The position numbers and the translations under genes are program-made. A stretch of 63,281 nucleotides of DNA, filler included, from Hausera hauseri (lineage: Eukaryota), in NCBI GenBank assembly GCA_046269625.1. It is 12 parts of 12 records of this genome, joined end to end, with 100 filler letters (N's around TTAATTAATTAA, not from the genome) between each part and the next. Parts side by side here need not be neighbours in the genome. Positions count along the whole stretch, not along the records: positions 49,134 to 53,809 come from JBJURY010479798.1; 11 more parts are not named here. The stretch is one strand, 5' to 3'. Positions 7,048 to 63,281 of the stretch are shown here, piece by piece. Below the pieces are notes generated by a model, which saw only the letters and a list, made by a program, of their open reading frames with translations, searched no databases and had not been told where the DNA came from. Position 1 is the stretch's first letter. Every line of letters starts with the position of its first letter.

Positions 7048-7103
7048 GTGAGTATTTAAATGAATTTTATTTATTTCCAGCTCTTTGCAAATTTTCCTCA
7101 AAA

Positions 7104-20120: not shown

Positions 20121-20322
20121 TACCAATGTCAACGTGACACACAACGATATTGTATAAAATTTTCATCAAATTGTCTATTACAAATTGCGGGAATGATAGC
20201 AGCAAGTTTCGCTCGTGTCTGGATGGTGTTTTGAGCAAAGCAATAAAGTACGGCTGACTACGTTTAAATCGCATTTTTGGACGTATTGATTCTGAGACGT
20301 AGTTGTTTATAACCGTTGCCAC
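20121..20322 (-). pseudogene. Polinton small ORF (paralogue of 60497-60838)
   Basis: MATVINNYVSESIRPKMRFKRSQPYF is nearly identical to the ORF at 60497. Confidence 0.75.
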
Positions 20323-20499
20323 TGTGACGGTAATTTGCGTCTAGTTGTTGTTGTTGTTGTTTTTCGAAGCACAGGATTGATTGATCGCTTGACTGTAGCG
20401 GTTAGTTTTGAGACAAGTTTCTTGTCGGGCACCCGCTTGGTAGATTTACGTTTAACAATTGTTTTTCGAAAATTCTTTATTTTATCACAATTATGTCGT

Positions 20500-20850
20500 C
20501 GACTTTTGAATTTGTTTATAGACCTATACACCTTTCTGATTGAAAACGTCTGTTTGTACAAGCATGTCATCGGGACACTGTTGGGTAAAGTTTATGAACA
20601 AGTATCTGTGTGGCTCGGTCGTAGCATCATGATATGCATATATCAAGTAGGCTTGGTTTTGAGGAAATGCTTGTCGTGCAACATAATCAATGATAGTCTG
20701 ATCACGGGAATTTTTGAACAACAATGAATAGTATACGTTAAGATTTCTTGTTCGATGTTGTCCGCCCTGATGGAACATGTTTTGCATAATGAAAATAACA
20801 GACACATCACGGTGTCGTAAAATTTTCGTAAACAGGTTGATGAACAGGTT
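20500..20850 (-). pseudogene. Polinton packaging ATPase, C-terminal half
   Basis: LFTKILRHRDVSVIFIMQNMFHQGGQHRTRNLN...LFKNSRD...PHRYLFINF is the A32-like ATPase C-terminus. Confidence 0.85.
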
Positions 20851-20969
20851 ATTGAAATATACAACAAAACAATATACATAGGATATCACAGTTAGGATTG
20901 TCACAGTAACTGAACTGAACTGAACTGATTTGTCTGAACCGACAGAGCTCCAATTGTTTAAACATGCGT

Positions 20970-23900
20970 TTATTTCAGCCGCCAGTGTCCATACGCCCAA
21001 CTCTTATTTTGTCTCACCCACTTTCGCTTATCATCGTTACATGACAAAGCTACTTTCGCACTCGTTATTTTGTACAGCTGGTGTTCAATTGATCGGATGA
21101 TCGTTTGAGACACAACAGCCACTGATTGTCCTCCTTCTGCCGCTTCTTCACATATACGTCGATAATCACCGTGACTTAGTTCCGTCTGTTTCAGCTGGAC
21201 TGCTTTGCCCGCATTTTCGATCCACAGTCCGTCAGAAGTCTGTATTACTTTGGACGTGGGAATATCCATTCTTGATGCTGAACTCTGCCTTCACTCTCAT
21301 CCTTGAAGCAACTAATTTTGTTTGTGATGGCGTTGCTGTACAATGGATGATTCTGTGGGTAATTGGACGTGTCAAGTAATCCATCGTCCATCGTTTGTCG
21401 CAGTAGTTGTTCGCGATTGACGTTTCCCAGTTGCAAGAACAAACTATCTGTGGCACCGGAAATTATATTGATCTTGCATCCGCCGCCGCCGACGAACATT
21501 TGCCGGCAACGTGCCAAATCACGATAGTGCAGCTCATACATCCGCAACTTGCTCAAATCCAATACCACTTGTCCTGTATAACTTGGCCGGTCTAGTACGA
21601 CTTCTTCCCTGTTTAGTAGCACCGCAACTAATCCATCGGCAATGTGCATTGACCGCCAAAACTGTCTTCTGCTATACGTAACCAGCCGCTTTTCCGAGTT
21701 ACATAGGCGCATACTGAGCCGCTTTTTCAGATTCTCCACTGTTTTTCCGTACAGGGAATTGTTTTTCAGATTGTAGTAGTCCTTTTCGAACTTTGTACAA
21801 GCTACGACTCATTTCTCCGAATTTCCATCTATGTACGCCTTAAATATAGGCGACTGATCAAACCGTATTGCACGATGAAGCTGTGTGACGCATACACCGA
21901 GCTGCATGTAAAACTGTAGCAGACGCCAATGGACCACGTAATTCAGCTTCGGTCCATGCGTCATGAGCAGTTTCTTCACTTTTGAACCTGGCGGATATTG
22001 GTTAAATGGTGCGACCTGTAAATCGTCCAAACGTCATGCAGCTCATCTGATACCACGAGATAGACATCCATCAGGTATCCGACTAACCCTGCCATGTCTG
22101 TTCATGGTTGGTTGACCATTATATCGTCGAGATCTTGTCTGTAGACAACCCATTTGAATGAACCGTACGGCAAGGGTTGTGAAAGCGCCCAGCCGTACAG
22201 GTTATTAATATCGATATACAGCAGTGATGTGGTATGGTAGCATGGACCTGATATTTGTTGACAAATGTCATGCTGCCGTGAATACCAACATTAAACAGTC
22301 GGTACATTTTCGGGTCTTGCAGCAGCTCAGTGTCTTGATCCAGTGACATTATAGCTGACGCTCATCTAATTCTCGGTATGGAATAAAAGTTGAGTGGCTC
22401 TAGCCTATCTTCAGCCAACGCTTTCGCTCGAAACACTTGAAACACATCGGCTAATAAGTACACGTCCGGTTTAAGATACTGGTGCATGTAATTCAACATG
22501 TTTCTACAGCCGAGTTTTGTTTAACGCCTCTGTGCTTTCCGGTATTCATCCTCTGCGATACTTGTCCATCGCGGCGGTAATTCCTCTGCTGCCCGGAATC
22601 GCTCGTATGATGTTGCAAAGTCATGTGGAAATATGCCTTTGCTGCGTGAAATATGTGCGGAGAACTGCGTCAGTGCTATCGGCACATCTGGCAAGGCATT
22701 TAACAGCTTTGCCAATGATTTATTGAGAAATTGTAATGAATCAAAGAAGCGTACCTGTAACCGGTTTATAGAAGCAGACAGTGACAGGTATTTCTCCATC
22801 GTAGTCGGAATTACGGACAGTTCTCAGTGCGAAAATCCCTTTATTGCACATTTCAAAATATGGTGATAATCAAAATTCATGAAGTTATGAAATACCACTG
22901 GTAAGAATGGCCGCACACGCCTTGCCAAATTGCATGAATTACATGCTGCTCCGAGATATCGATCAGTAAAATGATCGTTATCCGGTACGAACCATTCCAG
23001 TGCGTCAAACGGTAATATTTTGTGGCACAGGTAACATTCATCTGTGACTGCAAACGTCAGGCGTTCGTATTCATTTGTCCAGATCAGATGTTTGGTACTA
23101 TTATCTCAAGACCACGGTGCGATTTCAGTTTCCACTATGGTTTGCAACTACTGCAAGAAATCGCCTACACAATTCCACCATGGAAAACATAATATTGAGG
23201 TTGACCTGCGGCATTTATTGGGACAACCAACATACCTACGGCGATTGGAACATGTTTTTGTCACACATGCTGTGCTGTGGTAAGATAGCTTCGATATAGG
23301 CATATACTACATATTCCGGACTGTCTGTTTTTGACAAATTAATGGACCTGAGTTCATGTTTGACGGGTGTGACATACATTGTGGTTCCTGACGAATTTTG
23401 TCTGCACAGAGTCACATGTTTCTCCTATTTTGTTTCCGACCTTAATCCATGAAGACATACAGAACACCATTTACAATGTATTTGTTTTTGTAGGAAATGG
23501 TTATGCTCCATGTTCAGTAGTCTATCCAGATTTGTCACCGAAACGTAGTGGTACTTTTCTTTCTGTTTCAGTAGCAACAAATTTACTGAGCAGCCATTTG
23601 GGTTTCAACTACGATAGATTATATCCACACGAGGATTTTTGTAAATTTCTTTATTCGCCGGTATTTCTACGATCGTGTTATACAGGAACATGGTGATTGC
23701 CAGTGTCGGATTACGCCATTCAAATGTCGGAATGGATTTCAGTTTCATTGGCATCCAGGCTTTATCTAAATCCAATTCGGAAAAATATTTCTGATACTGT
23801 TTTGGGCAAAATGCACTATGTCTGTCCACATTGTCATATTTCAATACCGCCAGAATACTGTAAAGAAAACAGTATTCATCTTTAGTATTTTTTACACTCA

Positions 23901-24495
23901 CTACCACCAGAAACTGCTTCAGAGCTGCAGGTGTCGGTACGAATGATCGTCCAAACAAATATATTATGTCACTCGACTTTGTTATGATAATGCCGAGGGT
24001 GACAATCTTTACAATTCGCCATCCATTACCATTTTCCATGTAATTGGCGATTTTTTCCTCGAGCTTTTCGCCAATCTTAGAGATAAAATTCTCGGTATAT
24101 GGTACAGCTCTATGTGACAGGTACCACTGCTTCCTGTCGCCTTGCACGTTTTCGAATTCTGCAAGTGCATAATACTGCACTTTGCAATTGTGTTGGAATT
24201 TGGCCACTTCAGATTCCAACCGGTTTCGCATAATGGATGGAGCATGTCTCAATTGCGTTGTTGTTGTTGCTGTTGTCGCTGACATGTTCACTTTTATATC
24301 CACGTACGATTTTTTCAGATCGTACATGACAGTAATGCGTGGTTCCTTCCCCTGTTGCTCCTGTTTCTGCTGCTGATGTTCCTTCTGCTGTTTTTGATTT
24401 CTGTTGTTTTGCAAGTATTTATCAAGGCTTGTTGATGCCTGACGTTTACTACTTGTTGAGAGAATACAGCTGCTGCTGCTTTTTGCTGCGTCCAT
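20970..24495 (-). pseudogene. Polinton/adintovirus protein-primed DNA polymerase B with endonuclease VII-like insert, decayed
   Basis: CFLYSILA; CYLC...DHFTDRYLGAACNSCNL; PVVFHNFMNFD; FFDSLQFL; KGIFPHDF; YIDINNLYGWA; KNNSLYGKTVEN; LDLSKLRMY; TDSL; KVALSCNDDKR; AYGHW. Confidence 0.92.
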
Positions 24496-24577
24496 TAATG
24501 TTTGTTTTTTTCGACCGCTTAAACTTGTTTAAGTGGCCATTGTGCTGATTATAAATTGTTCATAGTTTATTTGATCA

Positions 24578-24914
24578 TCAGCTAAAGAACAACAGGGACA
24601 TACATAGTCCCGTTGTGGTGCCATAGTATTGCTCCATTGCACTATGGCAACCACCAACCTTATGCACTTTATTGGTACAGTAACGTGGGTACGTGGGGCA
24701 ATGCACAACCATCATATTCTTTGACCGCGTGAACGGCCCGAGATGATACTTGTGCATCTCATAAAAGTCGACATATGGGCATTGCGTTGAAACACAGCAT
24801 GTTGGACACACATACGTGTCCCTGTCCACTTTGTAATATTTCGCCATCTGTTCATGGCACGGCACGTCTACATATATGAGAGAGACGCAATACATGGGAT
24901 ATTGCTTGCATTTC
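24578..24914 (-). CDS. Small Cys/His-rich Polinton protein, likely spliced
   Basis: 105-aa ORF with CPTC, CPY, HKYH, HCP and C..H motifs. On minus it is preceded by acceptor tttctcatttag near 24915. It lies directly upstream of pPolB. Confidence 0.4.
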
Positions 24915-26877
24915 TAAATGAGAAACAAATTAAAGTAAATGTTAAATGTCATACAAATATATATAAACTTATTTATAATTTAAATTAAAATTTACTTAAG
25001 TTACACTATATACCGTTCCTTCTATGATGGTAATGGTGGTGGTGGTTGTGGTCTCAAGGCTTAACTTACTCAGCTATAAGCATTTACCATTCTCAGCATT
25101 TAATTTGTATAAATTAAATGGAAGAGTATATTGAAAGTGAAAATCAGAGATTGACCGTGACATTTGGCCAGACATGTGTTTGATGTACAGTTTTTATATG
25201 GGCTCACAGAAGCGAGAATAATGAGCAGGCGAGAGTATACTGAAGTGATAGTTAGATCTGTCTTCGTAAAACGTATCGAGGATGGAATGAGACAAAAACA
25301 ACTACAANNNNNNNNNNNNNNNNNNNNNNNNNNNNNNNNNNNNNNNNNNNNTTAATTAATTAANNNNNNNNNNNNNNNNNNNNNNNNNNNNNNNNNNNNN
25401 NNNNNNNTTAGCTCTATTTTATCTTCTTTTTTTGCATGACAAGGCCTCTTTCAGACCGAATTGGCAAGAAAGGCGATAACTGTGAGAATTAATTTTGGTC
25501 TTAATCCACTCTACGCGCCCGTTTGAACAAGAATGTAGTAAAAGTTTAATCGTTTTCCGCATTCATCGCTGTTTTCTCCACTTTTGAAAAACGTATATCT
25601 AGGTTCCACTGTAATTTTAAATGTTTTGTGGGCATAAAGTATAATATGAAAATGTTGTTGAAATGCTCAGTATCATAACGTTTCTGTCATGAGATGAAAA
25701 TATTTCCAACAGACTTTCGAATAAAGTTCATTCCGAGAAATTACTTATTATTTCTTCTAAAATGAAATAAAGCTTGCTTGTCCTGATCCTATACGACGCT
25801 TCATTTCTAGACAGTCGATGTTGTTATTTCGCTTCAGCTTCAAATTAGACTTAACTTCATTACCATAATTTCATTACACGATAAACGCTCAGTCGAACAA
25901 TTCCTTATAACGAATTACTCCAAATAAACATCGTACAGTATAGTATGTCTCAATTTAGCCTTCTTTTCTTTCTTCTGTCCTAAGAAATTTTATAAGGCCA
26001 ATTATAGACGTGAAACGGCAATTTTTTAACTTCCTTCTTCAATTTTAAGTGCGAATTATGAAAACTATACGTTTTCTTGATCAAACCAAACAAAAAGAAA
26101 CCAAATAACCTGCGGCCGAAATTCTTCGCTCGTTTTAGCCAGCCACTTTGTAACGGAACTCATCTTTTCGTCTGAAAAATAAATAAATTTAAATAAAAAT
26201 TAAAATAAACAGTTATTTCTTTTATTAACGCAAGATTTCCGCTTAATTTATTTTCAATTAAATATAGGTAATATTATGTACATATATTTTTATTCCATTC
26301 TTCCGTGACTCACCGTGAGACAGAGTTTCCTCCAAGTTGATTAGTTTCCTGAGAAGTTCTTTAATTAGTTTTTATAAAAATATTTATTTATATTTTCCAT
26401 ATTTTTTAATTAATGATAGTAAGTTTTAATGTACATTAGGAAAATTACATCGACCCAATAAATGCGATATGTGGTTTTCATTATAAGACATTTTAATTAA
26501 AATATTGTGCCTTGAATACTATCCCCGTCGAAGTATTACTTCACTTCATATTCCATTCAAATTGTTATGTAATACATCAAGACACTTCGAAAAAGTTTTC
26601 ATCTATTATTCCCTTCGTTTGCGTGCCATCTCTATTCTGTCGAACTGAAAAATGTTCACCTATTCTGAAATTGCTATTGTGTTATCATTCGACTTCAAAA
26701 AGTTTTCTAAACACCGTAATATCTGAATATTAGATGGAACAAACGAACAAACAGTAAAAGACAAAAGATAAGACGTAACTTGAAAAGTGCGTTAAGTGAT
26801 AAACGACTTATTTTATTATGTAAACATAGTAAAATAGTTAAAATAAATTGAGCATTCAAACTAAATACCTTTCAGAA

Positions 26878-33050: not shown

Positions 33051-34131
33051 TTAACTAGAATGTCGCCAATGTAAATTCAACATAGCATCCTTGGGCAAAG
33101 ATGAGAGTCCCTGCTCATCCATATGTTTGTTATTTATCTTTTCTACCGATTTACTGTATCGGTCTCCTTGAGGCAATCTGTAAATCAGTGCGTCTATTTC
33201 GCATTGTTGACCATTGATCATGGTGAATTGATCCACAACGATTTTCGGAGTCCTCTTGATTTTGATTGATTTTGGAGAGGAAATTTTCTTGAGCCGCTTG
33301 GGAGAAGATGGAGAAAGAGAAGCAAAGGATGTTGAGAGTGTGGGTTCTTTTGGTGGTTTTTGTGAAAGATAATTTTCGCCATGATCAAGATCAGTTGATG
33401 GTGTGGCCATTGTTGTTTTGTTAGTTCTATCATCAGGACAAACGTCGTCATAGTATATATCTACAGTTTGATACGCTTTCAAGTAGGCTTTGGCTAATGG
33501 AAGGGCTCTCATGGAGAAACTTCTTGTTTGCTCCACTTCCATTGCGAAGATACGGGTGTTTTCTGAATTAAGAGATTTGTATTTGTCTATTAAGGGTTTA
33601 TAATACATAAGATCCCTTAGTCCTTGGACAAATAGGAGATCTATCTGGAATAGGTGTTCAATAGCATACGCCAACTGACATCCGATAAGTAATTTCCCTT
33701 TTATTAAACTCAATATGATTTTCCGAGCGTCGTAATAGTCAGTTTGACCTCTTACGTGTATTTCCTGAAGGCCGGTTAAATGGGTTTCGTAATTTTCTAT
33801 CTTTTCACGGGGAGTAATTAACTGATTCATAATCACGGATCCATGTAAGTCTAATATAGCAACTTCTATTGTGGATGCTATTTTCTGGGGTTGGAGAGCA
33901 AATATGGTGGCGATGACTAATTGATTTTCTTCTTTAACTATAGTATTTCGTCTAAATGAGATACCAGTTCTAATGTTTGGGATAGCAGATGTCAAGTCGA
34001 ATGTGGGCTTCGCGGTACTTGTTGGAATATATACATTTTCTTTTTGCATGCCTTCTATAGCTATTAGTGCTCTTTCCGTTTCGAGTCGAATTAAAAGCTT
34101 TCTTTTCTGTCTCAAGGTTGTATAAATACTG
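33051..34131 (-). CDS. LTR-element 3' accessory protein with inactive REX4/ISG20-like DEDDh fold (5' cut by linker)
   Basis: EVAILDLHGSVIMNQLITPREKIENYETHLTGL...LIKGKLLIG...GLRDLMYYKPL closely follows the REX4 pattern. DxE reads ATIF and the GH...ND motif reads GCQLAYA. Confidence 0.75.
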
Positions 34132-45466: not shown

Positions 45467-45943
45467 TTATTTCATCGGAAAAATCAAACCAAAAACACTA
45501 CCAAACCAATTCAACCATAATTTGAGATCATTCGAATCTCGGACCCCAATAGCGGACTTTATTGTGCTGATTGACTGATTTGTCTTACACGGATGAATAA
45601 CAAAATACGGTAAACCAAAAAACGGATGTTCAACCTGCACTAAAGCCATTAACAAATCGTGATCGGTGCATTGGAATAATTGGCAAAATTCATGGATGCT
45701 GAGGTATTGACCACATTCATTATTGGCTCTGATGTACAAGAGTGGAGCATTGAATGTGGTTGAAAAACCAATTCGATATTCTACTTTATAATCCAAATCA
45801 TTTTTGTTCACAAAAGTACTTGTAAAAAGTTCTACAGATGCATTGTACTTGTCATGTTGAACTTTCGTCCATGATTGGAACGAATGATTTTTTAAATAGG
45901 ATTGCAACTCCGTCAGCTGATTAAGGTAACAATCGACATCCAT
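45467..45943 (-). CDS. ATG10: Autophagy E2-like enzyme ATG10 (single exon)
   Basis: EYRIGFSTTFNAPLLY, QVEHPFFGLPYFVIHPCKT (catalytic HPC), LKLWLNWFGSVFGL. Confidence 0.88.
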   Translation of the reverse strand: MDVDCYLNQLTELQSYLKNHSFQSWTKVQHDKYNASVELFTSTFVNKNDLDYKVEYRIGFSTTFNAPLLYIRANNECGQYLSIHEFCQLFQCTDHDLLMALVQVEHPFFGLPYFVIHPCKTNQSISTIKSAIGVRDSNDLKLWLNWFGSVFGLIFPMK

Positions 45944-46428
45944 TAAAAAATATTTGAATCGCTCACAAACAGTTCATGAGTCGATTAGCAATATGTAGGA
46001 AAATGACTTTCGTTTGCTGAAATAACAATATAGATTTTAAAACAGAGCAAAAATTATGATTGAGATTTGCTACAAAAACCTATTGGGATCTATCCATTCT
46101 GAGACGGTTTACGGGATCAAAAAATTGAATATTAATGATTTCGAACGAGAATGAGGGTTATTTGCCGCATTCTATAATATGAAATTTCTCGATGTAATAA
46201 ATCAAATTAAAATAGACAGAATTTAGTAAAATCCTAGATTTCACAGGAATTAGATTTTAGTTTACCGATAGCTTGAATTAACCCACATACTATGTGCATA
46301 TATAGTACGTACAAAATCAGATAAACATTGTTCTAATATAGTACTGGGAGAAGTAATTTTTAAAATATACAGTTTTATTTTTTCGTTCATGTAGAATTTA
46401 GAATATAGTTTAGCTTATTTGCAGTGTT

Positions 46429-47328
46429 ATGTTAACATCTAAATTTTTTTCAAAATTTATACCAGGCGGTACAATAATCAGTGGTAGGTCTGTGGCCGTT
46501 ACAACATCAAAGTTACTAATTTAATTTATTTTCTAATTTATGCTAGTTAAGATTTCAGGCAAGTAATGTACCTGCCGGTACATCAGCTGACGACAACAAA
46601 CCTAAACCTTATTCGCCTTTTCAGGTAAGTACTAGTAATAAGATGGAATTTGCGTTAGCCAGACTCGATGATTTAATTAATTTTGGTCGAAAGGTAAATA
46701 ATATTAAGTATGGATGACCGTATTGGGATTATTGTAGGGTTCAATCTGACCGATGACGTTTGGGCTGGCCTGCTGTGGAAATGATGCACATGGCAGCACC
46801 ACGGTACGATATGGACAGGTTCGGTATTTTGTTTCGTGCCAGCCCCAGACAGGCGGATGTGATCATCATTGCTGGTACCGTCACAAATAAAATGGCAACA
46901 GCACTGCGTAAGGTCTATGACCAAATGCACAATCCAAATGGGTGATTTCAATGGGATCGTGTGCCAATGGTGGTGGTTATTACCATTATTCGTATAGTGT
47001 CGTTCGTGGTTGAGATAGGATTATTCCCGTTGATATTTACATATCAGGTTTGTTTTGGAAGTTTATTTTTTCGGTTGGATTTCGTTAATTTTGTTGGCAA
47101 TAATTTTATATTTGTTATATTATTTTAATTTAATCAATTGCATAATTCGATTTATTTCATAATGCTCTCTACCTATCCATACCAAATCGAATCAACAATA
47201 ATGAAGTCTATTTTTATTCGTTTGTTTCAGGCTGTCCACCATCAGCTGAGGCACTTCTTTACGGTTTCCTTCAGTTGCAAAAGAAAATCAAACGGATGAA
47301 TAACGCACAGATGTGGTATAGAAAATAA
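46429..47328 (+). pseudogene. NDUFS7: NADH dehydrogenase Fe-S protein 7 (PSST) pseudogene retaining introns
   Basis: [90 protein letters not shown]. Two in-frame TGA stops and two frameshifts. Confidence 0.9.
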
Positions 47329-49135
47329 AGTTGACAGACTCGTTTTAGCGCAACATTAATAAAATAGATTCTTCTTATAGTTTTCATTTCCGAAATTCTT
47401 TCGACGAAAAATTACTTCAAACATTTATTTTGACCTTTCGGTAGAACTATTTAACATTTGACGAAAGTGTAAGTCAATCAGTTGTTACTCCATGGACTAA
47501 TTAGTAAATTCGTTTCATTATTATATGACATAATCCCTGGGAGTAAATGATTTAATGATGCATGTTTTCTCTAATTTCTTACAATGTGTTATCACTACGA
47601 ATAATTAATACGAATAGTTGAGAATATTTTTCACAGGATGCAAAATTATTTATAACTTTAATTAATTTGGAATGAAACTGTTTTGTAGCTAAATCAGTAT
47701 TCGATTGATGATTAGTTAATGTAAATCAATATTATTGTATTTCATTTGTATAATACACAATCAAATTATCATGACACACCAACACATTAAATTCGAACTT
47801 TGGCTGTTGAACGTCATGATTTCACTGAATATGCTAATTTCAAAAATTGGGCACGGGAATTCCATATTTAAACTAGAAATTTTGTGCACCATTTCTGAAA
47901 TCTATGTTTCATGAATATTTCATTCTGATAAACTTTTAACAAATCGATCGTTTAGACGAAAATATTTATCGATTAAACGTGACTACAACGGGTTCGGAAA
48001 TTTTGAAATCTATGTAAATTTTCAAATAGTTTTCGTTTATCAATGGGTTTATGTTAACATTTGTTGAGCAAATTGAGCGCTTTGGAGAAGGCCTTCTTAA
48101 TGTTACATCATTTTGCACTTCTTCAATTTCCCCCATAGCATGGAAAATTTCGTTTCATTTTTCAGCTAATATTTTACTAAAGTCGAATTTCCAGTTTGTC
48201 ATTCATGTTATGTCAAAGTACAATGTATTAGTCTAATTATCACTTACATCACTAATATCTCTTCCTTCTATATAAATATTAACTTTACAATTTGCACAAT
48301 CTTAACTAGAATAATTTTATCGAAAAATCCAAACTACTAAATCAAAACAAAAATGTTTTTTCAATCAAATTCATTATTTCACCCAACGGTCTGTGCTAAT
48401 CGCTGTAAAATTGACGATCAGTTTGTAAATAATTTAAAAAATTTCCCGTGATTGAAACCAAAAAAAAATATTGTTGATTTAAAACGTTTCACAAAACTAA
48501 TCGACGAAATGAACCATCTGGTTTTAAGCGTTTGTAAATAAATTACATCTGTCAGGTTTGGGATTCGTAAAATTTGAGGATCAGGAAAAAATATGTTGAA
48601 TTCTTCCACAAAACTTCACACAAATGAAATTCTAATTGACGGGTATTTGTTGGAGATTGGTTACTACAATGACAGTTCCCTTTCATTGACATACTGTCCA
48701 ACTTAAGTTCGAATATAACGATTCATAACATTCAAAGAAATGAACTAAATTGGTGCTTTGGATTTTAGTGACAATTGATCGATTAATAATAATTTAAAAT
48801 AATTTAAAATTCAATTTGAATTCTGAGAATTCTTCTAGTATGGAATTGTATTGATTTTGTCAATTCACGTGACTGAAATATTCTAAGTACTAAATTCAAA
48901 TTTTCTCTATTGATTTTTTTTTTTACTCCCTTCTTTTAATAACTTCTTGCAAGCGAGCAGATTTTACGCACAAGAATGCTAACACGTGGGAGGCTGGAAC
49001 AACGGGACGGGTTTAAGGCAGATGAGCCGCTTANNNNNNNNNNNNNNNNNNNNNNNNNNNNNNNNNNNNNNNNNNNNTTAATTAATTAANNNNNNNNNNN
49101 NNNNNNNNNNNNNNNNNNNNNNNNNNNNNNNNNTT

Positions 49136-49459
49136 CAGACGTTACGTAACGGTAAGTTAAAAATTAGTAGACAGTTTTATGAAAATATTGGACAGGAACG
49201 AATCAATGAATTAAATGAGCAAGACATACTGGAAAAGATGTTTGCCACAGGAATCACACGAGAGAAGGTAATAACGGCTACTGCCTACTTATCATATAAG
49301 GTAATTGTTATTAATTATCAGACACAAAATCTTAAGGAAATTGCGAGAAACATCAAAGTAATAGTGAAGGTTTTACGTGACACCCTGGAAAATTGGATGC
49401 AATGTAGAGGTGGATGGATACCAAGCCTAACGAATGTCAGAATAAGATCCGAAGGATGA
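49136..49459 (+). CDS. Bcl-2/Bax-like domain (BH1-BH2) inside a Gypsy element
   Basis: KMFATGITREKVITATAYLSYK resembles BH1 (F.DG.NWGR/ITRER.V). VLRDTLENWMQCRGGW resembles Bax BH2 LRERLLGWIQDQGGW, with similar spacing. Confidence 0.6.
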   Translation, partial: QTLRNGKLKISRQFYENIGQERINELNEQDILEKMFATGITREKVITATAYLSYKVIVINYQTQNLKEIARNIKVIVKVLRDTLENWMQCRGGWIPSLTNVRIRSEG

Positions 49460-51726
49460 TCATATGAAAAGCCTACCACAACACAACCTAATTCCACTAG
49501 ACAGGGTCTAGGTAGAATATTATTTATGGAAATATTACAATTATTATTAATAGCATCCATGTGTATGCCTAAAGCTATGGGAATAGTAGCCTATAATTGC
49601 TCAAAGCCCAAAGAAGGACAGAATTACTCTCTAGTGTACTTAGAAAAATGCCCTGAAGCTAATCCGTAACAGCTTACCACTACTGGCGGTCACCACTATT
49701 GGGTATATCAAGAATCGGAGTTTATTAAAGTTAAAATCACGGAATGTTATGTGAAGAAATCATTCTTTTTGTTCAACTGCGCGTACTATTCGGGAAATTC
49801 TGCCATTATTGAACCACCAACCCCTTTTGAACCTATAAGAATATTACGGGCAGAATGTCAAGACGCTTTTAAGATCGGAGTTATAACGACACAAAGCGCG
49901 CAAATATCATCAGTAAGACATAAGATAAAATACACTCAAATCTTCAGAGCATGAAGAATAGATAAAACAATGGAGGATACTTATAAAGGAGTAGATTACG
50001 ACGTTGGAAGTACCATTGCACCAAGTAGCTATTGAGGATTATCAAGTCTAATTAAAGGAATATGAAGGACTATTTGACTCAAAAACTAAACTCATGACGA
50101 CAGTGAGTGAATGTGAATTTGAAAGCGGTGAATGTGACACAGGAGATTCTAAGGTGACTTGAGAAGCATCTTCAAACCGATATCATTTGACATTATTAAA
50201 GGAAGGAAAATTCAACAAAACGGTAGGAAAATAGCAGAAAAATAAACAACAACCTACAAGGAAGGTAAAGAAGTGAAAATGACGGAAGTCGCGATGATAG
50301 TATACTCAGAAAATCCTGAAGAAATGATGCGCTTTAAAATGATCGGAACGACCAATAAATGTGATGAAGAAATGTGTAAAACGAATTATAAAGGTATATA
50401 TCTCTCACATAAGGAAGTGGCTCAAGATAAAAAAGATATAAAACTAACACAATACTTTGATAATAAGGTCGACTTTTTAATCAATTACGTCAGAAAAGAA
50501 ATCAGAAGTTTATATAGAGAGATAACAATAAAGGAATGTAAATTAAATTATGAAATAATCCGCAATAAGATGGCCTTAGTAATAACGAACCCAGATATGT
50601 TGGCACCGGTCATGACATTCGGAGATGGAATAATTGGAAGAGTAATGGGTGGGGTGTTGATAACCATTGAGTGTATGAAGACAGAAGTATCAATAAGACC
50701 AACAGAAGAATGTACATCAGAATTTATAACACGGAACCTCGATACATAATGCCAGTAACAAGAATATTATTAGACGCCAACGCTAAACCCACTCAGATGG
50801 ATAATTGTACATTTAATGTCTCCGATGTTTATACCAGACGATAAATGGATCCGAATGCCCAAAAGAAAACCGGTATTAAAACCAGAAACGTTAAGTTTGA
50901 TTAATTTGCAAAGAAATCAGAAGTTTGAACCATTAAATTGCATATCGCAAGGAGGGATTTATACGCAACAAAATTTAGAAAACTGCCGACGAATGTTGTT
51001 GTTTCCTCAGCAAAGACAATGAGTCATAACGGAGTTGACGAGAAGGGTAATGTGGGACGGAGAAGGTTCACCACAATAAGAAAATTTGGTGGGAAAAGAT
51101 TATTTGGAGAAAGTAACAAGGAGTGTAACGGAAAAGATGTGGGGAAAATTCTTATATTTTGGTCAAGCAGAATCAGGATTTTTAGCCATATATTTATCAT
51201 TGGTGCTTTACGAACAATATTCACTGCACTTGATAAAGCTTATGGAATTCATGCAGCAGTCGGATGTTCATGGAAAATTCTCATAGAGGTAATACCGGCA
51301 GTCGCTAGTTGTTTTCTAGCAAATCACAGCGCAAGATGGAAAAGAAAAATACTTAAGGAAGGAAATAACGATGTTGAGAAGAATTCACCATATAGTACTC
51401 TAAACGGTATAAATGACAATGACGACGACAATTCAGATACTAAATTTAAAAATAGTAAATATCTAACGAAGTTTAAACGATTGTCATTGAAATCACGAAG
51501 ACAGAGGTATAAGCGAAAACTGGTTACTGACTTACTCCAGTTAGACTCTGCACTCGAATATCACGGGCAAGTTTATAATGAACCAATGTTATTGAATCCA
51601 TCAGCTCCTCAATATGTGAAACATGGACGAATGGATCCCATGTACCAAGTTTTACGAATGAAACAAAAGTATGATGAAAACCCCGCACCATATAATCATG
51701 AACCCACATGTAAAATAGATAAATAG
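49460..51726 (+). pseudogene. Chuvirus-G-like envelope glycoprotein, decayed
   Basis: Signal peptide then IVAYNCS...SLVYLEKC; ECKLNYEIIRNKMAL..TNPD; GRVMGGVLITIEC..VSIRPTEEC; SQGGIYT...MLLFP; WGKFLYFG; TM and YGIHAAVGCSW. This is the chuvirus/retrotransposon G pattern. Confidence 0.75.
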
Positions 51727-51739
51727 ACCCCAGTCCGTT

Positions 51740-53809
51740 ATGAGACCAGAGATAGGTATCGAAGTGAACGGATACCCACTAACTGCATTAATAGATACGG
51801 GGTCCACAAATACTATAATTGGAAAGAGTCAATTACCTAAAGAACTAATAAAGAAGTTGCGAAAACCAACGGAAACTTTAATTAATATCGGAGATTTTGG
51901 TACGGAGGAGGAAATAAAAGCGGTCCTGGATGCCAAGATCAAAATATCTGACCAGACGATAAATCACACGATTAGAATAGCCAATAATCCAATTAATGAA
52001 ATACTGATTGAATGCGGTGTATTGCATCAAATAGAGAACACGTACATAGACGTAAAAACTGGTCAGCTCAAAACATTTAGCAAAGATCAATACGAATGTT
52101 TAGTTTCACTAATGGAGGATGTTATAATTCCGTCGCACTCTGAAATAGTAGTACCTGGCTGACTAGAATGTAAATCACCAATAATATATGTACATTTGAA
52201 CCATTCCCACGAATGATGGAGAAATACGACATTCTTGTCGCACCGCATGTCGATAAAATAAGAGATGGAAAATTCATTTGAGAATTTGCAATACTGGAGC
52301 TAAAGAAAAATGACTAAGAAAGAATATGAGACTTGTACAGGTAATGGCTATTGAAGAAATATCAAAGGCAACGGTCAATTCGGTTATCTCAGAGGTAGAT
52401 AAAATTTAGAAAATGATGGCGGAAAATTTGAAGAAAGAAACGAATAAAAATAAAGAAGAAAAGAGAGTCACCGGCATTAACTGGGAAGAAAAATTACGCG
52501 ACTGCAATATTTTAACTAAGAATAAAAAAGGTATGTTAATTCAGCTGCTAGAAAAGAACGGTAATCGATTCGCTCAGAATAATTATGACCTAGGAACATG
52601 CCATCAAATTAAAAGACAGGCAAAATAAATCTATAAAGAAACGACCATACAGATTAGCATACGATAAAAAGGAAGAAGCCCGAAAAATTATAAAGGAAGT
52701 GACAAAAATAAGATAATACGATCAAGTTGTTCCTCTTGGACGGCCCCAGTAGTAATGGTTAAAAAGGAAGATGGAACAATGACATTCTGTGTAGACTATA
52801 TAGAAACCGATACATATCCATTACCAAAGATTGATGAAATATTAGATAAATTACATGGCTCAACAATATGTACCACCATTGATTTACAGAAAGGGTACTG
52901 GCAGGTCGAAATAGAAGAGGAAGATAAACCGAAAACGGCTTTTTCGATAGTGAAGTATTATGGGAGTTTAATAGAATGCCGCTTGAATTAAAGAATGGGC
53001 CGCCAACTTTTCAAAGAGGAACGGAGTTATTACTTTTAGATGCACCACATGCTATGGCGTATATTGATAACACATTCATTGTATCATCAGATTTACAACA
53101 GCATTTGAAAGGCTTACAGGACCTTTTTGATAGATGTGAAATAATTGGTTTGAAAATAAATCCAAAGAAATGTACGTTTGCTCAAACCGAAGTTGACTTT
53201 CTCGGATACAGAGTCGATAGATACGGTGTGAGACCTCATGATAGGCTACTAGGCAAAATAGAAGATTTTCCAAAACCAACTACAATTAGCGAATTACGTC
53301 GATTTCTAGGACTTCCGAATTACTATTGAAGGTTTGTAAAGGATTTTAACAAGATAGCCATACCACTCTACAAGTTGCTACGTGAGGACATAGAAGAAGT
53401 ATTATGGACGAATGATTGTCAGAATGCTTTTGTGAATCTAAAACAAAGATTATTAAGTGCTCCGATTATAATTTATTCAGATATGACTAAGCCGTTCATA
53501 TTAACAACCAATTCCAGTGACTATGGAGTTGGAGCAGTATTGTCACAAAAAGATGAAGATGGCAAAGAACATCCGATTGCATATGCGTCAAGAAAGTTAA
53601 ACAAACACCAAAGGAAATACTCTGTTATCGAAAAAGAGCTATTAGCAGTAATCGTTGCTCTAGAGGTGTTCTCACCTTATATTAGCGAAAATAAACCTTT
53701 AGTAATATATACCGACCACCGGCCGTTACAGTGGCTGAAAAAGCATGAGAATCTTAGCAGTAGGTTATTACGATGGGCTTTAAAACTCCCGCCATATACA
53801 TTAGATTTC
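51740..53809 (+). mobile_element. Gypsy pol (protease, RT, RNase H), decayed
   Basis: ALIDTGS; SSWTAPVVMVKK; DLQKGYWQV; YID(N); RRFLGL; NSSDYGVGAVLSQ; YSVIEKELLA; TDHRPL; RLLRWAL. Confidence 0.93.
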
Positions 53810-54227
53810 NNNNNNNNNNNNNNNNNNNNNNNNNNNNNNNNNNNNNNNNNNNNTTAATTAATTAANNNNNNNNNNNNNNNNNNNNNNNNNNNNNNNNNNN
53901 NNNNNNNNNATAATAGAATTAAAAAGATATTCTAGAAAAAGAATTATTATGAATCAGACCCTATTATTGTCAACTAACCTAATTTGCTTAATAGGTTGTG
54001 GTGTGGAGTGGACCGTCGACGCTAAGGATATGAAAAGCTTTAAATGTCAATATGCAAAAATACACACATATAGAAATGCAACACCATGCAACACTAAACA
54101 ATTACAACCAATAAATAAACATCAACTAAGAAAGCCAATAATAATAAACAATACAAACACCTACACTAAAGACGGGCTATTAAAAACAACCCGTAGTATG
54201 ATAATACTTCTTTTCAGTCAAATTCCA

Positions 54228-56312
54228 ATGTCCGACAGATTTCTTCAATCAAAAATGATCAAGGCAGACGTAGATCTGGACGCAACATCAGAGTCAGATT
54301 CAGATACTTCAATCGACACAGTGATCCTAAATCCTAAAAGGAAAGTGCTTCCATCAACACATTTCACCTTTTCAAATCCAACTCAAGGAGTACAGTTTCA
54401 AAGAGAAATTTGTAGCAATAATATACGTAAATCAATATCAATCTCAAATGAAATAACCAAATCGCGACTTCAATCAATGGTAGAAGTAAGAAAACCTGCT
54501 CCATCTTACAACGATATATCTCCCATGAAAAGAGATGAAATTATGCTCAATTTGCAAGAATTAATCAGTGAACAGGAAACTCTATGGCCATGGGACGCAG
54601 TAGCAAAAAAGTATGTGAAGATATTACATGGGACTAATAATCATCTACCCCTTGGATTTTACAAAACTATTAAAAACATGATGGAAGAAACAAATGAAAT
54701 TTTTTATCCAGAGGCAAGAATGATTGATAATGCTCTAAAAGTTACCACTACCGAAGAAAGAATGTTCCGTATCATAAAATTACTGACACCAGTCTATAAC
54801 GAAAATCTACTGAACACGCTTAAATATTCAGCGGTATCGAACTGTAGTAAAATAATCGTGCATTTGATCCAAGGACAGATACAATTACGAGCAGAGAAGG
54901 AATCATTTGTCTCGAATCAATTCCCTTATCTATTACAAGCCTATACCACAATGGAAATGCAAAATACTATTGTTAAACACTCAATTTATTTCCGTACAGC
55001 AACAGTTCCTACTATAATAGCAATAGAGATCTGTCAAAAGTTCAATTTGTATAGAAATTTGGAACCGCCAATGTTCTACAAAACCCCACAAGGGAAGATA
55101 GTTCAAAATTTTCAGCTAACAAAAGCTGACAATTATCGTTATTTAGCCACCTCTTTGGCCTATTCAACAAGAGGTAAAATGCTTCCAGTAGAAATCATCA
55201 TAGCCGATAAAACAGGGTTGATTATTTATCATGATTATGTGAATCCTAGAATGAAGATAGATAATACCAACGAGCACTATCATGGGCTTAATAAACAAAT
55301 ACTAAGTCAATCAACGGATGAAGAGGAAGTTAGATATGAAGTCATGAAGTACTTATTTGGGCACATTGTAATTAGTGTAAACACCATTGCAATCCTGCAA
55401 GCCCTACAGATACCTTTTGATATATTACACGGTATCATAGATTTATTTGCAGCAAAAAACTCGCTGAATCGATATCAGGATGCCAATGAAAAAATATGTC
55501 TTAGTAAACTACCAACGGTTTACGGATTCAACCAAGACTTTCCTAAGAACGCGGAATCCATAATAAGTATGGTCGTAAATATTCATAAATTAGTCTCAGA
55601 ATCCTGCACTAACGAAACCTGGATGATGGATTGGGAACCTCCTCCCAATAATCTAATCCATAATGGATCTTTTCATCTCATTGATGATAAATATCATAAC
55701 AACTACGTGGAAGAAAAGTCAGAAAGTAACGCTCCAACAGTTGCTCAATGCATTAAAGATTATGTAATAAGAAACCAGCAAAAGAAAAACCAAACCACAG
55801 ATCAAGTCCAACAACAAGGGATTAGATTATCCTTAATCCTGTACGAAAATGAATTTAGAATAATCAATGTTAGATTTTTACACCAACCCACAGTCCAGAT
55901 AAACAAGGATCAATGTATATTAACTAATTACAATCTTGGACGATTGGTTGGACTAGTATTTAAGCATGCTAATCAAAGCACGCTACACCTATGTACCATA
56001 GGTATAGAATATGAAATTATTAGGGAATTGAATCATGATCTTATAAAAAATATCCAACCAATATTTCTACAATTGGAACCTAAACCACTTCCTAAACCAA
56101 GGAGTGGTAAGCCACTGATCTGTACATATAACCTCAAAATGTTGCTATACCTTAATTGTGAAGAATACGTATTAGAAAATCTGTACAACATGACAGCAAA
56201 TCAGGAGCTAAACCAAACTCCTATTCAGACGAACCAAGTCATAATCCAGTTAACTCACAAGTCAGCAGAACAATATCCAACACCAAACCCAACCAGTTCC
56301 AGTCAAGGATAA
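54228..56312 (+). CDS. LTR-element 3' accessory protein with inactive REX4/ISG20-like DEDDh fold (open frame)
   Basis: ATG follows acceptor cttcttttcag (54217). PVEIIIADKTGLIIYHDYVNPRMKIDN..HYHGL...LFGHIVI...GIIDL; DxE reads ATSL. Paralogous to 7104-9086. Confidence 0.7.
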   Translation: MSDRFLQSKMIKADVDLDATSESDSDTSIDTVILNPKRKVLPSTHFTFSNPTQGVQFQREICSNNIRKSISISNEITKSRLQSMVEVRKPAPSYNDISPMKRDEIMLNLQELISEQETLWPWDAVAKKYVKILHGTNNHLPLGFYKTIKNMMEETNEIFYPEARMIDNALKVTTTEERMFRIIKLLTPVYNENLLNTLKYSAVSNCSKIIVHLIQGQIQLRAEKESFVSNQFPYLLQAYTTMEMQNTIVKHSIYFRTATVPTIIAIEICQKFNLYRNLEPPMFYKTPQGKIVQNFQLTKADNYRYLATSLAYSTRGKMLPVEIIIADKTGLIIYHDYVNPRMKIDNTNEHYHGLNKQILSQSTDEEEVRYEVMKYLFGHIVISVNTIAILQALQIPFDILHGIIDLFAAKNSLNRYQDANEKICLSKLPTVYGFNQDFPKNAESIISMVVNIHKLVSESCTNETWMMDWEPPPNNLIHNGSFHLIDDKYHNNYVEEKSESNAPTVAQCIKDYVIRNQQKKNQTTDQVQQQGIRLSLILYENEFRIINVRFLHQPTVQINKDQCILTNYNLGRLVGLVFKHANQSTLHLCTIGIEYEIIRELNHDLIKNIQPIFLQLEPKPLPKPRSGKPLICTYNLKMLLYLNCEEYVLENLYNMTANQELNQTPIQTNQVIIQLTHKSAEQYPTPNPTSSSQG

Positions 56313-58777: not shown

Positions 58778-59674
58778 NNNNNNNNNNNNNNNNNNNNNNN
58801 NNNNNNNNNNNNNNNNNNNNNTTAATTAATTAANNNNNNNNNNNNNNNNNNNNNNNNNNNNNNNNNNNNNNNNNNNNTTTCGTTTCCAGACAGTCGCCCT
58901 GCAGAAAGTCGCCATTAGAAACTTTTTCTATTTGTTGGACAGGTTCTGTTTTCGTTTCCAGCAGTTTAACATTAGAATTGCCATTTTTGTAGCCAAACAA
59001 CCACGACCAATCTGAACTTTCATCATTCTTACAATCATCATCATTAAGTAGAATCGTTTTATCGTCGTTTTTCATGGCAGTAATGTCTGAATGAGCATGT
59101 AATGGTATTTATAGTTTGTTGTGCAATGTACATTATTTTGATTCACTAAAACATTTATGTGGTTTTTAATTTTAATAATAATCGTTTCATAGTCCACTGG
59201 CCGAATACAGAGTACAACAGCTTTTGCACTGCTAAGCACACTCACACAAAGTGGGCGAAACTACGTAAGTCAAGTGCAGGAAACAGTTCGAATTAATACA
59301 TACATTTAGTGGCCATTGCTCCTTTATACAGATTGATTGTTTGGTAGTTTAACTGAATCGTTACTGTTGTAGTTTGAATTTAATCAATGACAATTCCGAA
59401 TGGTAGTAGTTTACTGTTGTCAGCTTTGACTGGTTTACGACAACCCATAAAACGACACTTTCCCAATTGAAATATGATGCATGTAAAATCCGGTGGACAC
59501 TTGAGTACATACTGCCTCGGCTTCTATTCATTAATGTCACACTCGGTAACATGTCCGCGAGTGTTGATATTATCTAACATTATGGAAACAGTGTTTATAC
59601 TATAGCTATTTATATGTGCGTGTAACACGATTATAAACAAATCTTGTGGTAAGGAAAGGTTGTATTATTACTAG

Positions 59675-60310
59675 ATGAAGCTGCAGAATGATGCAATGTT
59701 CCAGATTTTAGGCCCCAGTAGAAGTGGCAAAACATACTTTATGTGTAAACTATTGCATAATTACAAAGCCGTGTTTCATTCACCGCGGCACAATCGCATT
59801 TATTTGCATCAGGGTATTGGTGATGGTAAGTCCGGTTTGATGCATCGGGAATTTTGTAAATTAAAATCGATAACGGTAATTGATGGGTTTGATGAGAACT
59901 GGTCCGGACGATTACACAATGGTGACGTTATTGTCATTGTCGATTTATTTCAAGAGGCAACGAAACAATCGGACTTCAACAATCTGTTTACGAAGATTGA
60001 GGACACCGTTGTGTGACGGTTATTTTCAATACGCAAAACATATGCCATCACGGCGGACAGCATCGAACAAGAAATCTAAACGTACACTATTTGGTGTTGT
60101 TCAAAAATCTCCGTGATCAGGTTCTCATTGATCATTTTGCACGACAAGCATTTCCTTACAACCCAGCCTACTTGATAAATGCATATTACGATGTTACGAC
60201 CCAGCCACAAGGATACTTGTTCATCGACTTTATACAACAGTGTCCGATAACACGCGCGTACAAACAAACATTTTCAATCAGAAGGGTGGTGTATGTGTCT
60301 ATAAACAAAT
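59675..60310 (+). pseudogene. Polinton packaging ATPase
   Basis: Walker A GPSRSGKT, VIVIVDL, LFTK, QN..HHGGQHRTRNLN; frameshifted near 60000. Confidence 0.9.
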
Positions 60311-60496
60311 TCGAAAATCGACAAAATGATTGTGATAAAATGAAGAATTTCCGAAAAATAATTGTTAAACGTAAACCTACCAAGGGCTGGCTGGCGGCAA
60401 GAAACGAGTATCAAAACGAACCGCTACAGTCAAGCGATTAATCAATTCTGTGCTTCGAACAAAAATAGGAGCAGCTAGACGCATATTACCGTCACG

Positions 60497-60838
60497 GTGG
60501 CAACGCTTATAAACAAATACGTCTCATCAGCATCAATACGTCCAAAAATGAGATTGAAACGTTGTCAGCCGTACTTTAGTGCTTTGCTCAAGGCACCTAC
60601 GAGACATAAGCGAAACATTCTGCGATCATTACCACAGTTTGTAGTAGACGATTTGATGGAAATTTTATACAATATCGTTGTGGGTCACGTTGACATTGGT
60701 AGTGGAAAGCGGAATTTACTAAAGTATCGAAAACGACTAACTGGCCTTGCTAAGTCTCGTAGTAAACAACTGAAACGGGAAGTCATGTACCAGCAAGACG
60801 GTGGATTCCTTGGTGCAATTCTACCGGTTGTCATGTAA
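60497..60838 (+). CDS. Polinton small virion/core-like protein
   Basis: Lies between ATPase and integrase and ends QQDGGFLGAILP, the typical Polinton GG-hydrophobic motif. Confidence 0.6.
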   Translation: MATLINKYVSSASIRPKMRLKRCQPYFSALLKAPTRHKRNILRSLPQFVVDDLMEILYNIVVGHVDIGSGKRNLLKYRKRLTGLAKSRSKQLKREVMYQQDGGFLGAILPVVM

Positions 60839-61015
60839 TTACTGGGTAGACTCATTGGTTCTACAGAATAGTATAAACAATGACGGTACGTGTATGATTA
60901 TTCGGCGATATGGGTGCATGATTATCATCATTTTGCCCCAGTTTACCGAATCTTTCATTTGCGTTTCGTTTTAATTGCTATAATGCTAACAAATACTACA
61001 TCATCGATAACAACG

Positions 61016-61870
61016 ATGGGCGACGTGTGGTTCGATCCGCGTCATCCCGTCGGGTATACTGGCGTCAATAAACTGGCAAAGACTGTCAAACAGACTTGGC
61101 AACCGACCCAACGTTGGCTCGGAAAACAGTTAGCATACAGTCTAAACAAACCGATAAGAAGGCGGTTTCCAACTCGTGCATACCGTGCTGCCGTCGTAAA
61201 TAACGTTTGGCAAATGGATCTGATGGAAATGATTCCGTACGCCAGCATCAAAGATAAGTAGCGGTATGTGCAGACATGCGTTGATGTGTTTAGTCGTTTT
61301 GCACGTGCAATTGTCGTGAAATCTAAATCCGGTAAAGAGATTGCCGACGCTGCCCAGACATTGATACAATAACAACAACCGAAGCATTTACAAACGGATT
61401 TGTGTAAGGAATTCTACAACGCCGACGTTTCAGCGCTCTTGAAACGGTTGGACGTAGACCACTACTCGGTGTTTTCCCAATACAAGGCTGCACTCATTGA
61501 ACAATTTAATCAAACTCTATATAGTTGATTAAACAAATTCTTTACGAAGCAAGGCAACAAACACTGGGTAGTTGTACTGCCGGATATTATTCATGCATAC
61601 AATCATTCAACACATCGTAACATCAATGGATTACGACCGGTTGACGTAATCGATGATTTGGACATGTGGTTTTATCAAAACCAACGAGGACGACCAATTA
61701 AACGCTCAAAATATAAAATCAGTGATTACGTGCGCATTTCGAAAATAAGTACGATGTCATTCTTTAAGAATTTCAATAAGAACTGGAGCGACGATGTTTT
61801 TTGCATTTAGGCAATTAACACAAAACAAACACTTGTCATGCGGTGACATTGAAAGGTAGTATGAAAATAA
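61016..61870 (+). pseudogene. Polinton retroviral-like integrase
   Basis: FDPRHPVGYTG, RRRFPTR, WQMDL, VDVFSRFA, LQTD..KEFYN, KAALIEQFNQTL, YNHSTH, DYVRISK, NWSD. Confidence 0.9.
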
Positions 61871-61899
61871 CGTACAACAAGACTGTTACTAAAACCAAA

Positions 61900-62746
61900 A
61901 CACATTCTTGTCCTCTGACACTTAATCGCAATAAAATAACAGTTGAAGAATCGGCCATTTGCACGCCCGGTAAAAATTACGGTGTTTTTTATTTTAGGGG
62001 AATACTTATATTTTATGGCAGATTTTGAATTTTCTGCTACTCTGAGTCCCTTAAGATGGCACAGAAATTTGGACTCAAAAATGCAGAGTACAGAGGTACA
62101 AATATTAAAAGTTAAAATACAGTTGCTACTAGATTAAGTCCCGTATATTACCAGACAACGGTGAAATTTACCTATACAACAGAAAGGGTATCAACGTCAT
62201 GCGTATCGATTGGCGACAATGTCTATTGTGAATCTTCAGCACAGCTCTGTCAACACTTTTCAAATCAAAAGTACAAGGCGATATTTAAAGTTTTGGAGTC
62301 AGAGACAAATGGGTATATTAAATTTTAACTGGTTAAGGATATTGTTGACATTTTATTGGACAAAGCTTTGGCCATGGTATAGAGTTTTGAAAAACAGCGG
62401 TTTGAGCATCGAAGACGGCGGCGGCGGCACATGTTGCAACACTCAAACCCAAACTGAAAACGGGATGTACATTTAAGTGAATGTTACTGAACCGATTTTT
62501 GTTGGTGGAGTACGTGTACCGCTACTTCGTGCAATTTATCCGGAAAGCAGCAAGTATACTGCTGGCAACAATGTCACTGTCAAACTCGATAATCCAATGT
62601 ACCTACCTGTGGCATCTATATCTATAAACAATGTTGAAGTCAGTATCCGATGTGATACGGGCTACCTTATTGAATTTCCGTACGGTACCACAACCAGTCT
62701 AACTCTTCATTTCCGTCGGATCCAACAACAACAACAACATGATTGA
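61900..62746 (+). pseudogene. Polinton minor capsid (penton) protein
   Basis: C-terminus PLLRAI...NPMYLPV...IN.VEVSIR.DTG..I.F..GTTTSLTLHFRR. Confidence 0.75.
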
Positions 62747-63103
62747 TTCCCAAATCGTTTTCATTTACAGTATGCCCCAGCAGGGTGGTGAACTGTCGTA
62801 TTTCGTTGGTAAACAGTATGGCTCTAGATGGTTGCGTACATTGGCACGTTTAGCATTTCCGGTGTTAAAGCGTATCGGTGCCGTGGCAGCAAAAACAGCA
62901 TAGGACGTACTATATGAAAACAAATCGATTTGAACATCGCTGAAGGAACACGCCCTGTCGGAAATAAAAAGTTCTGCACCGGGAGTCGTTGAGTCAGTCA
63001 AAAAACGATTCGTTGGCAGTGGCTTGATGAGAAAACGTGGACGTGGTAGATCAGCTAGCTTTTCAACTATAAGCAATCGTCGTCGTCATACGATTTTCGA
63101 TTG
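62739..63103 (+). pseudogene. Polinton core protein (pVII/pX-like)
   Basis: QQGG...QYGSRWLRTLARLAFPVLKRIG...GSG...RKRGRGR..RRRR basic tail; has internal stops. Confidence 0.6.
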
Positions 63104-63139
63104 ATTGATTGATTGATTGACAGACAGACAGACAAACAA

Positions 63140-63281
63140 ATGGCATTTGCAAAATCTGAATTGTGTATATTTGACAAAGCAGAGCAACAAGTTGTTATCT
63201 ACAATGCAGCATTTGAAATCTACACCGTTGATTCGGTTTCAAAGGACGATAACATTGACATTCAATTCAACACTATGACAT
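63140..63281 (+). CDS. Polinton/adintovirus major capsid protein, N-terminus (runs off window)
   Basis: MAFAKSELCIFDKAEQQVVI matches the KSELDLF..P.TQ..I start of Polinton capsids, in the expected position. Confidence 0.7.
   Translation, partial: MAFAKSELCIFDKAEQQVVIYNAAFEIYTVDSVSKDDNIDIQFNTMT

Follow-up and report, generated by a model that had tools for sequence, protein, structure and literature searches.

A segment resembling the Bcl-2 family lies at the edge of a retroelement contig from Hausera hauseri, shortly before a viral-type fusion glycoprotein. Is it a genuine Bcl-2-like domain, does it belong to the element, and what might it do there? The stretch of DNA analysed (the window; 63,281 nucleotides) consists of 12 unplaced contigs of assembly GCA_046269625.1 joined by N-linkers. 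The element contig, JBJURY010479798.1, is 4.7 kb long and occupies positions 49134-53809. The Bcl-2-like segment takes up its first bases, and no window sequence upstream of 49134, the contig edge, belongs to the element. At the other end the contig stops at 53809, ahead of any integrase, and it is bounded by gaps. Its features are as follows, with P0002, P0003 and P0004 denoting related proteins.

49034..49133, no strand: assembly linker, N44-TTAATTAATTAA-N44; Gag and the beginning of the Bcl-2-like domain fall outside the contig
49136..49429, + strand: Bcl-2-like core, approximately helices 4-8 (profile and PDB matches; 48/98 residues identical to P0002)
49253-49288, + strand: BH1-like ITREKV without Trp-Gly, within the Bcl-2-like core
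49388-49417, + strand: BH2-like W-x-x-x-R-G-G-W, within the Bcl-2-like core
49457..49459, + strand: in-frame stop inside the linker between the Bcl-2-like core and the leader; P0002 is open at the same place
49505..49582, + strand: hydrophobic leader, predicted to act as an internal signal sequence for Env (hydropathy 1.7-1.8; same pattern in all 23 motif-bearing sequences)
49583..51360, + strand: class III Env of chuvirus/Monjiviricetes type, or 'HSV/gB-type' (PF24664, E 8.6e-18; tblastn with P0002, P0003 and P0004)
51743..52036, + strand: retroviral-type aspartic protease (PF00077, E 5.2e-9)
52512..53326, + strand: Gypsy reverse transcriptase, decayed and in two frames (PF00078, E 9e-8 and 3e-13; 42-44% identity to P0003/P0004)
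53480..53797, + strand: RNase H (PF17917, E 7.5e-40)

After the stop at 49457, the same frame resumes with the hydrophobic stretch and continues into the class III fusion glycoprotein. The leader carries small residues at -3/-1, ahead of an I-x-A-Y-[DN]-C-S Env start. In this copy, Env is interrupted by stops, among them those at 49667 and 49952, and changes frame near 50017-50025, 50228-50279, and 51142-51238; such lesions are spread through Env and Pol. The copy at 49134-53809 is dead and makes no Bcl-2-like or Env protein.

The sequence-only reading had placed an intronless Bcl-2/Bax-type domain in a retrotransposon at this site. The claim is borne out by peptides in frame at 49136-49459 (+) and by a match to the Pfam Bcl-2 profile (PF00452, model positions 35-100; E 1.6e-5, 25.8 bits), and no intron interrupts the visible part of the segment. 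The score, for a domain truncated at the contig edge, falls under the PF00452 gathering score of 31.4. The bcl-2 profile TIGR00865 matches the window segment at E 6.8e-4. A PDB sequence search with the segment matches 72 sequences at E<=10, and 55 of the 60 listed are Bcl-2-family members; among the best 60 of the 72, none matches at E<=0.001, and the best match is BOK at E 0.014. The alignment with BAX spans 63 residues on each side (34-96 versus 98-160), so the BH1-BH2 spacing is Bax-like, as the first reading had it. In the ESM Atlas, the top clusters are of Bcl-2 type (0.91 and 0.90), with a recognition of 1880 and hence weak. The Bcl-2 domain of P0002, when cut out, matches Pfam at E 0.0027; used alone, it found no Bcl-2 match in the PDB at E<=10 and no usable match in the ESM Atlas.

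The 5' end of the segment coincides with the contig edge, so the N-terminal helices are absent from the contig. The match in the BH3 region is weak. At BH2, the pattern W-x-x-x-x-G-G-W is present, and RGGW is kept in both the window and P0002. The BH1 motif NWGR with its conserved glycine is found in neither sequence, the corresponding residues being ITREK in the window and ISRNK in P0002. According to PMC2836074, Bcl-2, KSHV Bcl-2, and F1L depend on the BH1 glycine for their pro-survival action. Because neither sequence has the BH1 Trp-Gly, it is uncertain whether the window and P0002 domains bind in the canonical pro-survival manner. The failure at BH1 lowers the case for a classic pro-survival Bcl-2 protein but not for a domain that works on cell death. 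Judged from its sequence, the segment is a divergent Bcl-2-like domain, its resemblance real but weak.

Profile search and structure prediction had been named in advance as checks on this domain, and they gave a divided answer: a Bcl-2 profile match under the curated cut-off, and no significant fold match. The AlphaFold models, predicted without a deep alignment, are of low confidence (pLDDT 47.6 and 39.3, both <50). With these models Foldseek returned nothing at E<=0.001, and its weak rows, at E 5-10, include four of eight from the Bcl-2 family. A profile built from two sequences across all 1130 columns matched only Arc capsid-like chains.

A relatives search covering 1.84 billion representative proteins returned P0002 as the sole protein with the domain (49% identity, E 1.8e-23). 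P0002 is one open frame of 1130 aa that runs through Gag, a ubiquitin-like domain, the Bcl-2-like domain, the leader, and Env. Its Gag contains a CCHC knuckle, and the profile matches are ubiquitin PF00240 at E 0.031 (weak), Bcl-2 at E 0.055, and Env at E 6e-19. The alignment with the window spans the Bcl-2/Env junction, with 45% identity over 299 residues. Identity is 48/98 (49%) in the Bcl-2 core, 6/24 (25%) in the linker, 8/22 in the leader, 57/99 (58%) in the N-terminal part of Env, and 49% in mid Env. In conservation the Bcl-2 core is thus roughly on a par with Env and has twice the identity of the linker, a pattern that suggests the domain is under constraint. A search for longer proteins with P0001 gave nothing among 129 candidates, and a near-length search with P0002 residues 600-900 returned P0002 itself alone. 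No loci were found in the metagenome scans or in the viral-contig scans, one of which gave two matching stretches.

P0003 and P0004 are open Gag-Env-PR-RT-RH-IN polyproteins of 3,760 aa, from clusters of 7 and 21 members, and their Env and Pol are 34-44% identical to the window. No Bcl-2 match lies ahead of Env in either. Both retain the hydrophobic leader, the small -3/-1 residues, and the same Env start; the leader with the Env-start motif is found in 23 sequences, namely the frame in the window plus 22 of the 24 proteins compared. Since the leader is kept in sister clusters that lack the Bcl-2-like domain, it belongs to Env. The first reading had given the hydrophobic stretch two roles, as signal peptide of the glycoprotein and as tail anchor of the captured domain. 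The former stands, whereas the stretch did not come with the captured gene as its tail; a second role as membrane anchor would be plausible on topological grounds. Two open sister clusters without the domain also mean that it is dispensable for this element type, of which, on these comparisons, it is a variable cargo. P0003 and P0004 each contain three protease-like stretches and, past the integrase, a C-terminal region with three hydrophobic segments.

In sequencing run X1, 9,079 contigs align to the 4.7-kb contig, 8,134 of them less than 95% alike; the run is a single study that may be the window's own source, and it shows genomic copies rather than independent occurrence. At the listed sites inside the Bcl-2 segment, 28-59 contigs were counted, and summed depth should not be read as copy number. 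A single contig of 327 nt spans 49210-49536 with 49 differences and no gaps. Some single contigs, with short sides, skip parts of the segment. The Bcl-2-like segment is a family trait of the element, since dozens of contigs cover it and one bridges the junction; together with the open homologue P0002, this answers the earlier question of whether other copies of the family carry it.

Several other features occur in the window. A decayed Gag piece related to the Gag of P0004 and P0002 lies on another contig at 16934-17238 (+). Four contigs bear mutually related ORFs at 6264-9086 (+), 53910-56312 (+), 33054-34130 (-), and 1574-2041 (-) (blastp E 4e-18 to 2e-4). These have no Pfam match; one matches ISG20/ISG20L2 exonucleases in the PDB at E 6e-9, and two, of 800-940 codons, are open amid otherwise decayed DNA. 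They are probably mobile-element cargo. An ATG10-like ORF, apparently intronless, is located at 45467-45973 (-) (PF03987, E 9e-20), and an NDUFS7-like gene with short introns at ~46560-47330 (+) (PF01058) shows in-frame stops by eye and is a possible pseudogene. The regions 20121-25307 and 58878-63281 share inverted homology and are presumably Polinton/Maverick-like pieces, with ATPase-, polymerase-, and integrase-like ORFs recognized by eye.

What kind of element carries the domain? The contig at 49134-53809 contains Gypsy-type PR-RT-RNase H, and the class III Env is placed before Pol, PF24664 lying upstream of PR on the same strand. Gag is seen in P0002 and integrase in P0003/P0004, and neither is on the window contig, nor are LTRs or the full length of the element visible there. 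In both the window and P0002, the BCL2-like motif comes immediately before Env, as described for the planarian Burro elements. The sources for Burro are reportedly Grohme 2018 and Jurka 2007, as cited by the Burro review. According to the available part of PMC6431247, Burro elements carry a BCL2-like motif preceded by a ubiquitin/SUMO-like domain; their mononegavirus-like Env follows BCL2, precedes the protease, and shares one reading frame with gag on one side and pol on the other. The order Ubi-BCL2-Env-PR is thus published. The initial view that Bcl-2 mimics are not typical of retroelements therefore fails, the BCL2-Env-PR order being in print for Burro (PMC6431247). Burro elements are also characterised by sizes of >25-30 kb and triclad hosts, and Burro1 by a 4,873-aa (~4,900) ORF with BIR, ankyrin, MATH, and RING domains. 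GAG-ENV-POL elements are also catalogued in flatworms in the accessible part of PMC13524379.

No Pfam match to BIR, ankyrin, MATH, or RING lies between Gag and Env in P0002, the closest homologue, and the element is therefore filed as Burro-type rather than Burro1. Two short open pieces between PR and RT (33 and 35 aa), where a dUTPase-like region was sought, have no Pfam match, and none was detected in P0003/P0004 at E<=1. The contig very probably holds one degenerate copy from a high-copy family of Ty3/Gypsy GAG-ENV-POL errantiviruses of planarian Burro type, the likeness to Burro1-4 being one of domain order and published description rather than of sequence alignment.

Six short Env motifs match only six S. 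mediterranea rows among the 229 fusogen rows in the available supplement of PMC13524379, where gaps in aligned rows can hide motifs. Four of the motifs were taken from the window Env or P0002 and two are close variants; one had no match. The string 'bcl' is absent from seven supplements of that paper, and 'apopto' and 'burro' from its main text, as far as these were available. Among the papers retrieved in the literature search, none but PMC6431247 was found to name BCL2 in a retrotransposon; the available portions of PMC8532177, PMC11410931, PMC6884822, PMC13309565, PMC10175614, and PMC13238120 contain nothing on BCL2.

Taken together, the locus is probably best explained as a decayed Burro-type copy whose intact relatives use the Bcl-2-like domain to dampen host cell death. 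Intact members would make one polyprotein, Gag-(ubiquitin-like)-Bcl-2-like-leader-Env-Pol; the frame is open from Gag to Env in P0002, and from Gag to integrase in the sisters without the domain. The Env leader would enter the ER, and signal peptidase would cut before the conserved Env start, a site placed by the -3/-1 rule. The Bcl-2-like domain would then face the cytosol, where the leader would tether it or the element protease would trim it, and could dampen host cell death during element expression through a non-canonical surface rather than the BH3 groove. This scheme of polyprotein, ER leader, cytosolic tether, and pro-survival action is plausible and, at best, narrowly probable. Pro-survival cargo has a precedent in the clade, because the RING+BIR module of Burro1 is reported to be anti-apoptotic and to protect stem cells (Lee et al. 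2026 Dev Cell, as cited in the accessible part of PMC13465017). Counting against the explanation are the lack of a significant fold match and the sub-threshold Pfam scores; the absence, in the window and P0002, of the BH1 glycine reported as necessary for pro-survival activity (PMC2836074, in part); the effectors BOK, BAK, and BAX as top PDB matches; and the sister clusters of 7 and 21 members without the domain, beside one domain-bearing homologue.

Some poxvirus Bcl-2-fold proteins block innate signalling. A fold kept but repurposed could likewise act close to the membrane as a structural or adaptor domain, either in the manner of a matrix or by blocking innate signalling, with no role in apoptosis. 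Loss of BH1 Trp-Gly in the window and P0002, the weak BH3-region match, the divergent viral Bcl-2-like clusters that are its weak Atlas neighbours, and the fixed position beside the Env leader would all fit such a use, but RGGW at BH2 is kept in both sequences, the sisters assemble without the domain, and the clade bears other apoptosis cargo (PMC6431247, in part). We consider repurposing unlikely, though a serious contender. It is quite improbable that the domain acts as an effector of the BOK/BAK kind, permeabilising membranes or killing the producer cell for particle release: the leading PDB matches are BOK, BAK, and BAX, and the Lys following the BH1 glycine position resembles BOK in the PDB alignment, yet E-values of 0.014-1.5 cannot separate subfamilies, and a killer domain would be costly to a genome-resident element.

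A resemblance due to chance, a neutral passenger, or unrelated contigs joined together might be suspected from scores under curated cut-offs, the missing fold match, the position at a contig edge, and the single contigs that skip parts of the segment. However, the identical junction occurs in the independent open protein P0002, another copy in run X1 bridges it, conservation is near the Env level and twice that of the linker, and the arrangement is published for Burro (PMC6431247, in part); these readings are highly improbable and already largely refuted. A host Bcl-2 exon with the element inserted alongside was ruled out by the conservation of the junction in the open polyprotein P0002, and a tail belonging to the captured gene itself by the presence of the hydrophobic stretch in relatives without the domain.

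A Bcl-2-like domain beside a viral glycoprotein in a retrotransposon was already published for planarian Burro in 2018-2019, and the available portions of the literature covered annotate the module only. The present analysis adds two sister polyprotein clusters without the domain but with the leader, and the absence of BH1 Trp-Gly in both Bcl-2-like sequences. Specific, testable predictions on topology and function follow from the sister families with and without the domain, from the Env leader they share, and from the lack of the glycine at BH1. In a bolder and rather unlikely version, the lineage is a compact Burro type whose Bcl-2-fold protein, one per Env, is tethered to the ER by borrowing the Env signal as its tail anchor, and its glycine-less, non-canonical surface controls host cell death or serves particle budding. 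If true, sister families that gained or lost the domain would amount to a natural experiment on what a retroelement gets from apoptosis cargo.

Cellular BOK/BAK/BAX and viral Bcl-2 mimics such as vaccinia F1L share with the domain the helix 5-6 core, the BH1-BH2 spacing, and the BH2 GGW (PMC2836074, in part). Unlike them, the window and P0002 lack BH1 Trp-Gly and embed the domain in a polyprotein, and the hydrophobic segment of the window is an Env leader ~30-40 residues beyond BH2 rather than a free C-terminal tail. The Burro1 B-IAP (RING+BIR), as described in the accessible text, is likewise apoptosis-type cargo borne by a retroelement, but it is a caspase-level IAP and not a Bcl-2 fold. S. 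mediterranea GAG-ENV-POL errantiviruses 1-6, with an HSV/gB-type Env, share the Env-before-Pol order and six short motifs in the available part of PMC13524379, the comparison with the window being by motif and not by alignment. Measured against Burro as described in the available sources, no dUTPase-like region was detected, and P0002, whose Env begins at residue 808 and which lacks BIR, ankyrin, MATH, and RING, is more compact than the 4,873-aa ORF of Burro1. As in Burro (GYPSM1/Burro1-4), the BCL2-like motif stands immediately ahead of a mononegavirus-like Env, which itself sits between Gag and protease in the same frame; PR-RT-RH comes next, and a weak ubiquitin-like domain lies upstream of BCL2 in the homologue P0002.
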